In this document: positions 1,359-14,756 of the stretch, in pieces
Layout of the letters: each line of letters opens with the position of its first letter
Position numbering within the stretch: position 1 is the first letter of the stretch
Source: a virus
DNA: 14,756 bases
Virus record (IMG/VR): IMGVR_UViG_3300021057_000107
Span: 1 to 14,756 of that record
Reading direction: 5' to 3' (one strand)
Notes under the pieces: model-generated
Told to the model about the DNA's origin: nothing
Seen by the model: only the letters and a program-made list of their open reading frames with translations
Databases searched by the model: none
Program-made: the position numbers and the translations under genes

Positions 1359-2825
1359 TTAAAAGTTATAGTCTATTTCAACATTTCCTTTAGGGAAAAC
1401 CCGAATAATCTTAATCAAAGCGTTTATCATATCTCGCTTTTCTTGTAGAGAAGCTTCTTCCCAATTTTGGTCAAACTCCCTATAAAATCTTTCTTTCTGC
1501 TTAAAATCCTCTTTTTTGGCCTTTTCTACCTCAAGTGAAGCCTTCAAAGAAGAGATATCCCCTTCAAGCTCCTTAATTTCCTTCCGGATTGCCTCGTATC
1601 TCTCCAAGAATTCATCTGGGGGGCTGTCTTGCTTCTCAAAAACCTGTAACCATTTCTTTTTAGCTAAATCTTTCGATTTTAGGGTTTTTTGTTTGTTTTC
1701 GATCTGTGCCTTAATATGGTCTATTTCCTGCTGTGAAGTTACATTTAAATGCCGCTGCATATATCTACTGTCATTTAAAAGCGCTCCAATATGCTCAAAG
1801 ATCATTTCCTTTACCGAACCTTCAAGCTTTTCTTTCTTATGAAATTTACGATGTTCACAGTCTCTTTTCTTGTTCCTTCGGTGGCAAGATGAACAGGCAT
1901 AATATCCTAAGCGACCTCTGTCCTTCTTTTGACTTGGAACCTCTCTTTTAACCATTTCACGCCCACAAAGACCACACTTAGCAACGTCTCTTAAAATAAA
2001 ATCCGGGGCCACACATGACCAACTCGCTTCGTAGCCTTTAAAGTTTGCGTCTCTAATTCTCTGAACTTCTTCAAACATAGGAATTTCGATAATGGGCGGG
2101 TGCTTTTGTTCATAGATAATTTCTTTAACTTTCATGCGTCCAGTATATTTAACATTCGTCAGTATTCGCATTATTTGCCTTCGATCAAGCTTAACCCTTG
2201 CGCTTATGCCTCGCCTTTCTAATTCAATTCGTACGCGGTTATCACTCTTATACTGCAAATACAATTTATAAATAAGCCTGACAATTTCTGCATCTTCCTC
2301 GACTATAACAAATCTTTTCTCAATGGTTTTATATCCAAAGGGCGGTTCTGATCCAAAATTTGTTCCATCACGCTGAACCTTCGTATATCTTCCAGTAATC
2401 ATACGCTCAGCGATATTGTCTCTTTCCATTTGAGCAAATACAGCAATTATGCCCATTATTGCCTCAGAAAACTTGGAGCTTGTATCAAAAGGCTCTGTAA
2501 CAGATTTATAGGTGACGCCGTAATTCTTAAACTCTTGCAGTAGTTCCAGAGTATCCCGTGCTGTTCTACTTAAACGATCTTGTTTCCACACAAATAAATG
2601 CTTAACTCTTCCGCGCCTTATATCTTGCCGCAGTCGTTCAAGTGAGGGTCTATCTACAAATGTAGCCCCACTGGAAGTATCAATATAGAAATCTTGTTCG
2701 GAAAGCTCTAAACCTTGTGACCTTGCAAAAGAAGAGATTCGATCTTTTTGTGTGTCTATTGAGGCGCGGTCTTCCCGAGCTTGTTCAAGAGTGCTGACTC
2801 GTATGTAAGCTTTGCTTGTTTTCAT
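1359..2825 (-). CDS. Large serine recombinase (phage-integrase type), 488 aa
   Basis: The N-terminal resolvase catalytic motif is KAYIRVSTLEQ (Ser11), with the LFVWKQDRLSR motif following. There is a central recombinase domain and a Cys-rich zinc ribbon, CGLCGREM...YYACSSCHRRNKKRDCEH. The long charged C-terminal coiled coil (about residues 360-470) is typical of large serine integrases. Confidence 0.95.
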   Translation of the reverse strand: MKTSKAYIRVSTLEQAREDRASIDTQKDRISSFARSQGLELSEQDFYIDTSSGATFVDRPSLERLRQDIRRGRVKHLFVWKQDRLSRTARDTLELLQEFKNYGVTYKSVTEPFDTSSKFSEAIMGIIAVFAQMERDNIAERMITGRYTKVQRDGTNFGSEPPFGYKTIEKRFVIVEEDAEIVRLIYKLYLQYKSDNRVRIELERRGISARVKLDRRQIMRILTNVKYTGRMKVKEIIYEQKHPPIIEIPMFEEVQRIRDANFKGYEASWSCVAPDFILRDVAKCGLCGREMVKREVPSQKKDRGRLGYYACSSCHRRNKKRDCEHRKFHKKEKLEGSVKEMIFEHIGALLNDSRYMQRHLNVTSQQEIDHIKAQIENKQKTLKSKDLAKKKWLQVFEKQDSPPDEFLERYEAIRKEIKELEGDISSLKASLEVEKAKKEDFKQKERFYREFDQNWEEASLQEKRDMINALIKIIRVFPKGNVEIDYNF

Positions 2826-2937
2826 TAACCTTGCTTGTTTTGTTTATTCTTCTTTCGACGGGTTTTTGATAAATCTTCCAGAAATCATTTTCTGCTGTTT
2901 CTTTAATATTCAAAAACTTAGCTCTTGCCTTAATCAT
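2785..2937 (-). CDS. Possible 50-aa basic micro-ORF coupled to the tyrosine recombinase stop (speculative; candidate accessory or directionality factor)
   Basis: It is absent from the track because it is under 60 aa. The ATG at 2937 overlaps the upstream TGA as ATGA (2934..2937), and GGAGGAG lies just upstream inside the end of the recombinase gene. My translation is MIKARAKFLNIKETAENDFWKIYQKPVERRINKTSKVNENKQSLHTSQHS. Its last 41 nt overlap the large serine recombinase start in another frame, which argues against it. Confidence 0.3.
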   Translation of the reverse strand: MIKARAKFLNIKETAENDFWKIYQKPVERRINKTSKVNENKQSLHTSQHS

Positions 2938-4571
2938 TTCTCCTCCTTTATTGGATTAAAGTATCTCCGGCTTTTTATTAACCATGCCGGAGGATTCTTA
3001 ATTATTTCTTGTACGTCAGACAGAATAACTTGATTCCTCGCCCGCGTTGAGTCACTTTTAATTAACCCTTGCTTTACATATTTATGGGCCGTTGTTAAAG
3101 AAATTCCCAATATCTTCCCCGCCTCTTCAACGGAAATATGATCCTTGCTTACATTCTGAGTTCTTTTCTGGTTAGCATAGAACTTTATTAACCATTCTGG
3201 CTTTGCCTGCAGGATGAGATCAATTTCGTTTTTGCTTAACTCCTTTGCTATGCCGTCATTTCTAACCTTGCTCAAATACCCCTTCTTAACCCAATCTTTT
3301 AACGTCATAACCGAAGTCTTGATATACTTAGCAGCTTCAGCGAACGTCAAGTAAGGATCTTTTGCTCTTTCTTCGGCTGCTTCGCGTAAAATATCCGCTG
3401 TAGTTTTCTTCTTGGCTTCATTAAGTCTCTGCTTTCTCCCTGCTACCTGTTCCTTTAGCCATGCCACACGACGCTCTAAAATGGCAACGTCCTTCTCTGT
3501 GACAAATTCGGAATCATCCTGGACGCCAAGACTTTTTCTTATTTTTTCGTAACCTTCGGTTATTTCATCCTCTTGTTTCTGACGTAGAACATCTTTTCCA
3601 CCAAAAAGCAAAGCATGATCTGCAAACATTTTTTGTGGACTAACATGTGTGTATACTTCGGTCGTTGAGATGCAGCTATGTCCTAATAATTCTTTAATCT
3701 CCAGGGTATTTGCTCCCCCCTCCAACAAATGCGTTGCAAAGGCGTGACGAAATAAATGAGGATGAACACGCTTATTCACTTTTTCCATTAAGGCATATTG
3801 CTTCATTTGTAAACCAACACGTGCTTTATGCAGTTTTTTGCCTTCGCCACTTCCTGCAACGGTAAGAAACACTTTACATTCGGGAAGTAAATCCTCTTTC
3901 TTCTTTGTTTTGTTGTAAGTAGAAATGGCTAGATTTGCCCGACGATTGATAAATACAATTCGTTGTTTAGAGCCTTTGCCAGTGACAACCGCTGATCCAT
4001 CCGATAAATTAAGGTCCTTATTTTCCATATTAAGCACCTCGCTTACTCGGCAACCAGTGCTGTAAAAAGTTTCTAGTAAAGCCCAGTCGCGCAATAACCG
4101 AATTAATGGAGCATTAATGATCTTACAAACTTCATTGACGCTTAGAACATTAGGAAGTGGCCTTTGCAGTTTGGGAAGATCCATTAATAGCCAGTTTGCA
4201 GTACTTGGGATAACTTCATTTCTGGCTAAGAAATTTCCGTAACCACGAAGAATAGTTATGATTCGATGTCTAAGATTTGGCGTAAGGTTGGAAATTTGAC
4301 CTAAAAACTCTCTGACGATTGACCTATCAATTTGATTAACGTTCTTTAAACCATTCTTATTGGTGAATTTTTGGAATCTTCCAAGATAACATTGGTAGGC
4401 TCTTATTGTACTATTTGATAAATTCTTGATCTCACAATCGGCAAGGTAACTCTTAATTGATTTATTTATTGAGTTACTGACAGGAAAAGGTAATTGTAAT
4501 GACCTTTTCTTATTTAGAAGACGAATAATCTCCTGGTGGGTTTCCCTTTTATAAGCAATATGATTAGCCAT
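2934..4571 (-). CDS. Tyrosine recombinase (XerC/XerD-integrase family core) with a roughly 225-aa C-terminal extension carrying two tandem excisionase/MerR-like HTH repeats
   Basis: An N-terminal SAM-like core-binding segment (YLADCEIKNLSNSTIRAYQCYLGRF) is present. A full catalytic set is readable: R174 (STGCRVSE), GKGSKQR, H272-x-x-R275 (HPHLFRHAFATHLL), H298 (LLGHS) and Y307 (TEVYTHV). Residues 321-545 add a coiled coil and two related roughly 57-aa modules, YLTFAEAAKYIKTSVMTLKDWVKKGYL...KPEWLIKF and HISVEEAGKILGISLTTAHKYVKQGLI...PPAWLIKS. Confidence 0.92.
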   Translation of the reverse strand: MANHIAYKRETHQEIIRLLNKKRSLQLPFPVSNSINKSIKSYLADCEIKNLSNSTIRAYQCYLGRFQKFTNKNGLKNVNQIDRSIVREFLGQISNLTPNLRHRIITILRGYGNFLARNEVIPSTANWLLMDLPKLQRPLPNVLSVNEVCKIINAPLIRLLRDWALLETFYSTGCRVSEVLNMENKDLNLSDGSAVVTGKGSKQRIVFINRRANLAISTYNKTKKKEDLLPECKVFLTVAGSGEGKKLHKARVGLQMKQYALMEKVNKRVHPHLFRHAFATHLLEGGANTLEIKELLGHSCISTTEVYTHVSPQKMFADHALLFGGKDVLRQKQEDEITEGYEKIRKSLGVQDDSEFVTEKDVAILERRVAWLKEQVAGRKQRLNEAKKKTTADILREAAEERAKDPYLTFAEAAKYIKTSVMTLKDWVKKGYLSKVRNDGIAKELSKNEIDLILQAKPEWLIKFYANQKRTQNVSKDHISVEEAGKILGISLTTAHKYVKQGLIKSDSTRARNQVILSDVQEIIKNPPAWLIKSRRYFNPIKEEK

Positions 4572-5112
4572 GATTTTTATTCTGGTATCTCAGTAAGTAA
4601 CCTGATTTTCTTCTTCGCCCTTTATCCTTGCTGCCCTGCGGCCTCCCTAAATCACGACCCTTCGCCTTCAATCTGGCTCTTGCACTAACAAGTCCAGCCC
4701 TTGTTCGCTCGCTGATTCTTTTTCGTTCCTGCTGGGCAACCCAACTAAATATTGCCAGCAAAAGCTGCCCTAATCCTTCGTCACGCGTGTCTAGCCAACT
4801 TTCCTGTAATGATTTAAGATCAACCCCATTGCGCTTTAACCGTTCAATGTAACCTAAGGTATTGCTAATTCCTTCACGAGAAAGGCGATCTAACGACCAC
4901 AAAAGAACTAAATCAAACTTCCTTTTGTCTGCATCTTCAAGCATACGTCTAAACTCCGCACGATCTCCATTACTACCGCTTGCCAAATCAACATATTCGT
5001 CAATAATCTCGCCGCCTAAGGCATCTGCATAATTCCTAAGAGGAATTAATTGATTCTGAGGGTCTTGACTTTCATCATTTTTTGAAACCCGGCAATAGAT
5101 AGCAATTTTCAT
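4564..5112 (-). CDS. Small serine recombinase (resolvase/invertase catalytic domain), 182 aa, lacking the usual C-terminal HTH
   Basis: The sequence shows MKIAIYCRVSKNDESQDPQNQ (Ser10), LLWSLDRLSR and the E-helix AQQERKRISERTRAGL. After GRP (residues 156-158) only a 24-aa basic tail remains (QGSKDKGRRRKSGYLLRYQNKNHG). The start overlaps the upstream stop as ATGA (5109..5112), with GGAG 7 nt upstream. The 3' end overlaps the tyrosine recombinase start by 8 nt. Confidence 0.9.
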   Translation of the reverse strand: MKIAIYCRVSKNDESQDPQNQLIPLRNYADALGGEIIDEYVDLASGSNGDRAEFRRMLEDADKRKFDLVLLWSLDRLSREGISNTLGYIERLKRNGVDLKSLQESWLDTRDEGLGQLLLAIFSWVAQQERKRISERTRAGLVSARARLKAKGRDLGRPQGSKDKGRRRKSGYLLRYQNKNHG

Positions 5113-5673: not shown

Positions 5674-5753
5674 TGGTAATATTTCATTACTATGGTAATA
5701 ATATATCACCCAACAAAACATTTGTCAATAATTGACTGGTAATTTTTTATCAC
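5674..5753. promoter_or_regulatory. Three 17-bp operator-like direct repeats in the divergent control region
   Basis: O1 is 5674..5690 TGGTAATATTTCATTAC. O2 is 5693..5709 TGGTAATAATATATCAC. O3 is 5737..5753 TGGTAATTTTTTATCAC. TGGTAAT is invariant, and the right end is TATCAC in O2 and O3. O2 covers the predicted leftward -10. O3 fills the rightward promoter spacer. Confidence 0.55.
5700..5728 (-). promoter_or_regulatory. Predicted leftward sigma70-type promoter
   Basis: On the minus strand, TTGACA (5728..5723) is followed by a 17-nt spacer and TATATT (5705..5700). This implies a leader of about 160 nt before the 79-aa XRE gene. Confidence 0.5.
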
Positions 5754-14510: not shown

Positions 14511-14756
14511 TTATTTGTTACCATCGGCCTTTTTTTCTGTTGGATCATTAATAACAATTAAAACCTTTGGTTCGCCCACAGTGGCGTCAATATCAATTAA
14601 TGACTCTTTTGGCAAGATCGCAACAATGCGCTCAACGGCCCATTTAAAATCTGCCTTGTCTGTACTGTTCAGCATCTCCAAAAACTTTTGCTTTCCTTTT
14701 GCCGTTTTCCAGGCTTCAAGCAGATCATATTTCAACTGTTGGAACTTATTTTTAGA
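14511..14756 (-). CDS. 3' part of the same junction-spanning ORF (14630..14756 duplicates 1..127)
   Basis: The frame is continuous with 1..259 through the repeat. The stop is TAA at 14511..14513. The joined length is 378 nt, which is 125 aa plus stop. Confidence 0.5.
   Translation of the reverse strand, partial: SKNKFQQLKYDLLEAWKTAKGKQKFLEMLNSTDKADFKWAVERIVAILPKESLIDIDATVGEPKVLIVINDPTEKKADGNK
14630..14756. repeat. Terminal direct repeat, copy 2, identical to 1..127
   Basis: Same comparison as copy 1. The repeat starts at the g of caacaatgcg|ctcaacggcc and runs to the last base of the window. Confidence 0.95.

Follow-up and report, generated by a model that had tools for sequence, protein, structure and literature searches.

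Tyrosine recombinases obtain direction and site selectivity from accessory DNA binding. To our knowledge, in all well-studied cases this accessory binding is contributed by an N-terminal arm-binding domain, by separate helper proteins, or by both. In the classified tyrosine recombinases the extra DNA-binding domains are N-terminal (PMC8138268). Winged-helix-turn-helix directionality factors oligomerise on attachment (att) DNA and bend it (PMC11963761). The shufflon invertase Rci, a tyrosine recombinase, has an extra C-terminal domain that Cre, XerC/D and lambda Int lack and which is thought to mediate cooperative binding and to restrict the outcome (bioRxiv 10.1101/2024.10.25.620183). Recombination directionality factors (RDFs) promote excision and suppress integration by the cognate recombinase, and they bind either att-arm DNA or the enzyme itself. 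Serine integrases have been engineered as fusions with RDFs, which gives single proteins with a bias towards attL x attR (Olorunniji et al. 2017, PMC5737554). TnsD reads target DNA with C-terminal arrays of several helix-turn-helix (HTH) modules (PMC10293859). Here we analysed the virus record IMGVR_UViG_3300021057_000107 of IMG/VR over its whole length of 14,756 nucleotides (nt), referred to as the window. The record is complete: bases 1-127 recur at 14630-14756, which leaves a unique circle of 14,629 bp. It is a small 14.6-kb circular phage-like element. Its minus strand holds nearly all genes and encodes a tyrosine recombinase, P0001, which continues beyond the catalytic core into a helical linker and two tandem excisionase-type winged helices. 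We report the architecture, fold class, conservation, rarity and gene neighbourhood of P0001, a genuine and very rare natural fusion protein.

How does P0001 compare with the known systems? By profile and by model fold its modules are like the winged-helix excisionases and RDFs (lambda and Tn916 Xis, Pukovnik Xis, RdfS) and like BldC. Those proteins act as head-to-tail arrays on direct repeats, an arrangement which the covalent tandem of P0001 would mimic. They are free proteins of 55-80 amino acids (aa), whereas P0001 has two copies fused together and to a recombinase. The P0001 modules also possess an extra C-terminal helix that starts at a PxWL motif, and a role in excision is only putative. 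Lambda-type heterobivalent integrases resemble P0001 in that a second DNA-binding unit is connected via a helical coupler, with accessory-site reading and directionality as the proposed tasks. In P0001, however, the unit is C-terminal, it is a winged-helix pair and not the three-stranded-sheet arm-binding fold, it is mounted on a Xer-like simple core, and arm-type sites were not found in the circle. Rci is likewise a tyrosine recombinase with an additional C-terminal domain; the likeness seen here is one of architecture, and the source does not describe a tandem excisionase-like pair in the Rci extension. The engineered serine integrase-RDF fusions share with P0001 the C-terminal attachment of the factor via a linker in one protein, but they are man-made, use serine integrases and contain RDFs whose binding target is the enzyme, not DNA. 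TnsD/TniQ proteins, too, read DNA with C-terminal tandem HTH_17-type modules, and three TniQ proteins were among the 33 hits of the database search described below. Here the carrier is different and has no recombinase chemistry, and the HTH modules are outside the PPxWLKK signature family to which the P0001 modules belong. Appended HTH_17 arrays are thus already known (TnsD/TniQ, PMC10293859; some large serine recombinases in the protein atlas). New is the conserved, pre-paired HTH unit at the C-terminus of a simple tyrosine recombinase. Full-text literature searches for tyrosine recombinases that carry an excisionase or HTH domain at the C-terminus did not find this architecture described, and it is not among the structural features given in the 2021 tyrosine recombinase classification.

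The P0001 gene is composed as follows.
2934..4571, minus strand: tyrosine recombinase P0001, 545 aa, with a twin winged-helix tail (open reading frame (ORF) listing and translation)
4227..4448, minus strand: core-binding domain, residues 42-115, Phage_int_SAM_1 (Pfam E 3.6e-7, 30.8 bits against a cut-off of 22.3)
3633..4148, minus strand: catalytic domain, residues 142-313, Phage_integrase PF00589 (Pfam E 2e-31)
3357..3596, minus strand: helical linker, residues 326-405, with a zipper-like helix at about 359-385 (nt 3417-3497)
3156..3353, minus strand: winged-helix module 1, residues 407-472; the second of its final two helices starts at KPEWLIKF
2943..3140, minus strand: winged-helix module 2, residues 478-543; its last helix starts at PPAWLIKS

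The reading frame has no internal stops, and within its own record P0001 matches solely itself. The six catalytic residues R175, K199, H272, R275, H298 and Y307 are present and invariant in an alignment with two fused relatives, P0002 and P0127; by these residues the catalytic core appears enzymatically intact. XerC and XerD were the best NCBIfam matches, yet they remained under the equivalog cut-offs (TIGR02224 211.9 against 335 bits, TIGR02225 209.9 against 330). Judged by sequence, P0001 is a Xer-like "simple" tyrosine recombinase, neither XerC nor XerD. Among the Pfam hits no arm-binding family was present at the N-terminus, and residues 1-35 are a non-conserved helix. The chain runs on for 220 residues beyond about residue 325. 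This sets it apart from the nearest Xer-like genes on viral and metagenome contigs, 157 of 159 of which end no more than 20 aa from the equivalent of residue 325; the other two are cut by the contig end.

The preliminary description of this DNA had placed a duplicated Xis/MerR-like HTH module behind a complete catalytic core. Its coordinates were exact: window positions 2973-3353 (minus strand) encode residues 407-533 of the 2934..4571 product, the two HTH peptides it named are at residues 409-433 and 480-504, and the PxWLIK motifs at 457-464 and 527-534. The profile searches agree with it, and a lack of significant HTH matches, one of the two refuting conditions it had set, is excluded. Pfam HTH_17 (PF12728) matched two stretches of P0001 with a sum of 46.9 bits (cut-off 27), and NCBIfam TIGR01764, 'excisionase family DNA-binding', passed with 34.6 bits (cut-off 28.8); PHROG families annotated as excisionase matched as well. 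With isolated repeats HTH_17 gave 26.0 bits for repeat 1, just below the cut-off, and a passing 27.7 bits for repeat 2. The repeats themselves align with a BLASTP E of 5e-7 at 28% identity, the period being 71 aa, or 210 nt at the DNA level. Two tandem repeats are therefore present as described, but the module size of about 57 aa has to be corrected to about 66 aa as a further helix follows PxWL. MerR-family profiles stayed under their cut-offs (MerR 25.9 against 28.2, MerR_1 19.0 against 21.6), and P0001 does not have the layout of a MerR regulator: the helical linker precedes the HTH and an effector domain is absent.

The fold was modelled with AlphaFold2 (AF2). A model of residues 400-545 (m5420e0483931), built on a 13-row alignment, had a mean predicted local distance difference test score (pLDDT) of 87.8. 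In both modules it shows a strand, a helix-turn-helix, a two-strand wing and two helices, the last of which begins at PxWL. The mutual orientation of the modules is not fixed by this model, which has a predicted template modelling score (pTM) of 0.52. In an exhaustive VIA structural comparison BldC ranked first (Z 7.0, root-mean-square deviation (rmsd) 1.5 Å over 51/52 residues), followed by Xis of mycobacteriophage Pukovnik (Z 6.7), RdfS (Z 6.5), the GIsul2 excisionase (Z 6.3) and then MerR-family DNA-binding domains. Foldseek gave probabilities of 0.99-1.00 for BldC, RdfS and Tn916 Xis. A weaker match was TraN of pIP501 (4p0y; about 130 columns, E 0.05, probability 0.84, rmsd about 13 Å). 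TraN itself contains an internal tandem of the same winged-helix fold. Profiles and fold thus bear out a C-terminal pair of excisionase/MerR-type winged helices behind a complete core and a helical linker. A separate observation concerns the uncharacterised Pfam family DUF5997 (cut-off 27), which aligned with the wing and PxWL helix of module 1 (residues 435-473, nt 3153-3269). The score was 25.0 bits for the full protein, 28.5 bits for the extension of P0001 alone and 31.2 bits for P0122, a free homologue of the tail. DUF5997 may be related to the signature helix.

Core and modules are joined by a linker for which AF2 predicted helices at 330-348, 359-385 and 391-404, at low pLDDT. The hydrophobic residues V362, L365, V369, L372, V376 and L383 have heptad spacing, a pattern that suggests a coiled coil. 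Six linker residues, K360, D361, L365, R368, L372 and K373, do not vary among P0001, P0002 and P0127. Within the linker stretch no internal in-frame start with a Shine-Dalgarno sequence was found. Accordingly, a nested start from which an additional free twin module might be produced finds no support, as no start codon with a ribosome-binding site is available.

Is P0001 a single case? The same continuous architecture was detected in two further 90%-identity clusters, both from other metagenome assemblies. P0002 (528 aa, ENA) has 32% identity to P0001 at 92% coverage and comprises core, linker and modules in a single uninterrupted ORF; P0153 (528 aa) and P0154 (540 aa) are members of its cluster. 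P0127 (531 aa, Logan) likewise has the core, the conserved linker and winged-helix modules in one ORF. Here Pfam reported one HTH_17 stretch; the second module is seen only in the alignment, truncated and without the PPxWL motif. Compared with P0001 the catalytic domains of P0002 and P0127 are 46-53% identical, the DNA-binding parts 17-34%. In a quick tree calculated from the cores only, with 57 nearest Xer-like proteins included, the three fused proteins formed one group (support 99 in the Shimodaira-Hasegawa-like approximate likelihood ratio test, SH-aLRT), with long branches for which attraction is possible.

The fusion is rare. An exhaustive HMMER search of 1.84 billion representative proteins, with the 146-aa twin module as query, yielded only 33 hits at E <= 1e-3. 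Twenty of these were scanned with Pfam, and the tyrosine-recombinase fusions among them were P0127 and the unrelated P0152; the others were free proteins with several HTH_17 domains and TniQ proteins that end in an HTH_17 array. Word-based searches with the P0001 extension (residues 330-545) returned nothing but the query, and tblastn of the extension against phage and plasmid collections was without a match. A scan of IMG/VR with the alignment of the three fused members matched solely ordinary Xer genes of about 300 aa, and the same was true among the matches listed for JGI metagenome contigs. The fused form was not found among 401 sampled Omnitrophota genomes. P0152 is a GC-rich integrase and a database singleton. 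It has a Phage_int_M-type domain and a catalytic core, and its C-terminal part holds three or four HTH_17-type modules, one of which precedes an NPP motif; a word-based search with its tail again found only the query. Apparently it is an independent fusion of a like kind.

The twin module also exists in free form. Both modules recur in the closest hits, together with the signature helices KPxWLxK and NPPxWLKKSWxYFN, and P0001 can be aligned collinearly over the twin module with P0122, P0123, P0131, P0134, P0137 and five Omnitrophota ORFs. P0122 (219 aa) consists of a predicted N-terminal helix and the twin module; it is collinear with the P0001 tail from the helix just before module 1 (32% identity, E 5e-24), and the zipper-like helix of P0001 (359-385) lies outside this alignment. 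In P0123, P0131, P0134 and P0137 (279-304 aa) an uncharacterised 140-aa N-domain precedes the twin module. For the 140-aa N-domain of the Omnitrophota proteins Pfam and NCBIfam gave no match, and the N-domain of the free proteins is without a counterpart in the window. A scan of viral contigs with an alignment of the free proteins produced no match. The twin module is a small distinct family of its own, here called 'PPxWLKK'. Over 13 proteins, modules at the same position scored 39.9 bits on average versus 22.1 bits for cross-position pairs. Because same-position modules score higher, the pair must have arisen before these proteins diverged and joined the recombinase as a unit. The duplication is older than the fusion. 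Hence the HTH module is duplicated, as the preliminary description stated, but the repeat was not generated within the P0001 gene; it was acquired already paired.

Where do the free genes reside? In a scan of one genome per species, five loci with a free gene for the double winged helix (di-wHTH) were recovered, four in metagenome-assembled genomes of Candidatus Omnitrophota and one in a 'Planctomycetales' bin. A sixth came from the 401 sampled Omnitrophota genomes, only three of which have the full-length free gene. In all five loci with enough sequence the di-wHTH gene is followed by a small serine recombinase and then by a tyrosine integrase of 362-374 aa; the remaining locus, L082, ends after the serine recombinase. 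The complete cassettes are at these positions.
L083:913-4859
L084:193-4153
L085:10001-14035
L086:1465-5118
L187:5697-9172

In three of the five a tRNA gene (Thr, Leu or Pro) comes right after the integrase, within about 100 nt, and in L083 ordinary host genes follow. The loci are integrated islands, and the free di-wHTH gene is part of the recombination cassette, the usual place of excisionase genes. The window holds the same three components, except that here the tyrosine enzyme and the di-wHTH part are one protein. This location of the free gene in integrase cassettes is the main new argument, albeit indirect, that the module works with a recombinase. It also lends indirect support to the preliminary description, which had suggested a fusion of integrase and directionality factor or a novel recognition of accessory sites. 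The contig of L085 (14,757 nt) and the window (14,756 nt) have no nucleotide similarity, and their near-equal size is coincidental.

In the element the recombinase genes form an operon in the order XRE regulator, 67-aa ORF, small serine recombinase, tyrosine recombinase P0001, large serine recombinase and CHC2 zinc-finger protein. The neighbours of P0001 and a repeat found there are listed here.
4564..5112, minus strand: upstream small serine recombinase, 182 aa (Pfam Resolvase E 3e-36 only)
1359..2825, minus strand: downstream large serine recombinase, 488 aa (Pfam Resolvase, Recombinase and Zn_ribbon_recom)
2812..2849, minus-strand reading: tandem direct repeat of 19 nt, AAAACAAGCAA twice, from the repeat search; a candidate binding site only

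The small serine recombinase has a catalytic domain and a GRP arm, ends 24 residues past this arm and has no HTH. Its stop is overlapped by the start of the P0001 gene by 8 nt, through which it is translationally coupled to P0001, and it is a possible functional partner. It is 26-28% identical to the serine recombinases of the island cassettes. An HTH-like tail is kept by four of the five aligned cassette enzymes (L083-L086); the window enzyme stops where this tail begins, and that of L082 also ends early. The large serine recombinase lies 108 nt downstream of the P0001 gene and matches PHROG 95 (integrase) with E 2.5e-102. It is probably the integrase of the element, and possibly it is this enzyme that the HTH pair serves. 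The terminase led to relatives of the element (L183-L186), which have no recombinase in common with it. In the divergent region between the two XRE genes, at 5674-5753, three 17-nt TGGTAAT...CAC repeats are located; these are probably operators of the XRE switch and not sites for the twin winged helix.

Binding and att sites were searched for in the circle. Neither k-mers nor inverted repeats with 6-8-nt spacers, tandem repeats or non-coding local repeats were above chance. An arm-type repeat family above chance was not seen, the core site was not located, and Rfam revealed no tRNA-like att remnant. The AAAACAAGCAA repeat spans both the ribosome-binding region of the large serine recombinase gene and its start codon. 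Also noted were two 11-nt inverted repeats whose spacers measure 7-8 nt. One, at 4482-4511, is within the 5' end of the P0001 gene, a part that is not conserved; the other, at 107-135, is at the edge of the 127-nt terminal overlap.

What might the fused pair do? We favour the reading that an accessory or directionality-type DNA-binding factor of the element has been fused in cis to the recombinase and would serve as an arm-binding or architectural domain at the C-terminus, determining which sites are used and in which direction; we consider the chances for and against it to be about balanced. Accessory-site DNA binding, zipper pairing and an effect on directionality are what we infer. In such a mechanism the twin winged helices would bind two adjacent head-to-tail half-sites beside the recombinase core site and would bend the DNA there, as do free Xis, RDFs and BldC on direct repeats. 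Tethering to the catalytic subunit, together with a possible pairing of zippers, would let them play the part in P0001 that the N-terminal arm-binding domain and the free excisionase play in lambda-type integrases. The outcome would be a defined synaptic complex that fixes which sites recombine and in which direction.

Several points weigh against this. In the 14.6-kb circle neither a core site nor accessory repeats could be recognised. For spacers of 6-8 nt, 12 inverted repeats were counted versus 5.6 in shuffled sequences, none of them outstanding, and the AAAACAAGCAA repeat, the sole tandem direct repeat, is not significant, as by our estimate about 0.3-3 are expected by chance. According to Smyshlyaev et al. 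Xis genes occur only with integrases that have an arm-binding domain, not with simple ones (PMC8138268). The large serine recombinase could be the real integrase, and the biological reaction of the tyrosine enzyme is thus not fixed. The Z scores of 6-7 are in a range which the tool calls common; nevertheless, the fold matches agree with the independent sequence-profile result. The full-length AF2 model is of poor quality (pTM 0.29) and does not permit a statement on whether the HTH pair docks on the catalytic domain. The islands, finally, have limits as an argument. Their integrases belong to a different tyrosine-recombinase subfamily (22-26% identity to P0001), the free Omnitrophota protein bears the extra 140-aa N-domain, and the five loci are mutually related and count as about one independent observation. 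The 'Rosetta-stone' link between fused and free form is therefore suggestive, not proof.

Other explanations have to be considered. Trivially, a sequencing or assembly frameshift may have joined a recombinase gene and a neighbouring excisionase-like gene, and the free homologue P0122 proves that such a separate gene exists in nature. Yet the P0001 ORF is uninterrupted and its exact sequence is recorded on two contigs, composition shows no break, and the linker is devoid of an in-frame start bearing a ribosome-binding site. P0002, P0153, P0154 and P0127 keep the continuous architecture including the conserved linker. Because P0002 and P0127 have the same continuous ORF, a frameshift, which the preliminary description had named as a possible source of the extension, was excluded, and we consider an artefact extremely improbable. 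Another possibility is that transcriptional regulation is the main task of the twin winged helix: as a domain of the BldC/MerR type it would repress or time its own operon or the large serine recombinase and would have little part in synapsis. BldC, the best fold match, is a regulator that binds direct repeats as head-to-tail multimers, RdfS-type proteins regulate promoters too (PMC11963761), and the 19-nt tandem repeat covers the start of the large serine recombinase, whose gene follows that of P0001 after 108 nt. This repeat, however, is within chance expectation, and the element already holds two XRE regulators and an operator-rich switch region. Moreover, a regulator has no obvious need for a covalent tie to an intact recombinase, yet the tie is kept at about 50% catalytic identity. 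We regard a mainly regulatory role as quite unlikely.

The module might instead serve a serine recombinase, either by targeting the small HTH-less enzyme to DNA or as a directionality factor for the large one. The small enzyme is only a catalytic domain, its gene overlaps that of P0001 by 8 nt, and in all six island loci the small serine recombinase follows the free di-wHTH gene, in five of them before the integrase. In addition, positions 2-36 of PHROG 6620 ('transposase') match module 2 (E 8.5e-4), while its positions 57-177 match catalytic domains of serine recombinases; this layout of an N-terminal HTH and a serine catalytic domain we liken to IS607-type transposases. The protein atlas also shows HTH_17 on some large serine recombinases. 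Nevertheless, the small recombinase of the window is only distantly similar to the cassette enzymes, four of which have their own HTH-like tail, and the conserved fusion partner is the tyrosine enzyme, not a serine one. Service to a serine recombinase seems rather unlikely. Going beyond the favoured reading, P0001 might be a self-contained directional recombinase in a single polypeptide, in which a C-terminal zipper and a covalent Xis-like dimer replace both the arm-binding domain and a separate excisionase. Core as well as accessory sites would then be recognised by a single protein, which would fix the direction of the reaction to excision or resolution only. We put this forward tentatively and are inclined to doubt it; if true, it would be a natural counterpart of the engineered integrase-RDF fusions. 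The present findings fit an RDF, an arm-binding domain, a regulator and a DNA-binding partner of the HTH-less small serine recombinase alike.

Should the pair act as an accessory DNA-binding domain fused in cis, as we favour, the conserved natural fusion of a simple recombinase with a pre-paired excisionase-like module would be a third solution, next to the N-terminal arm-binding domain and the separate helper protein. Possibly it offers genome engineering a directional recombinase in the compact form of one protein. The work defines a small unnamed family of twin winged-helix proteins and a three-gene recombination cassette that is conserved in islands of the Omnitrophota, a phylum about which little is known, and this cassette hints at the host range of the 14.6-kb element.

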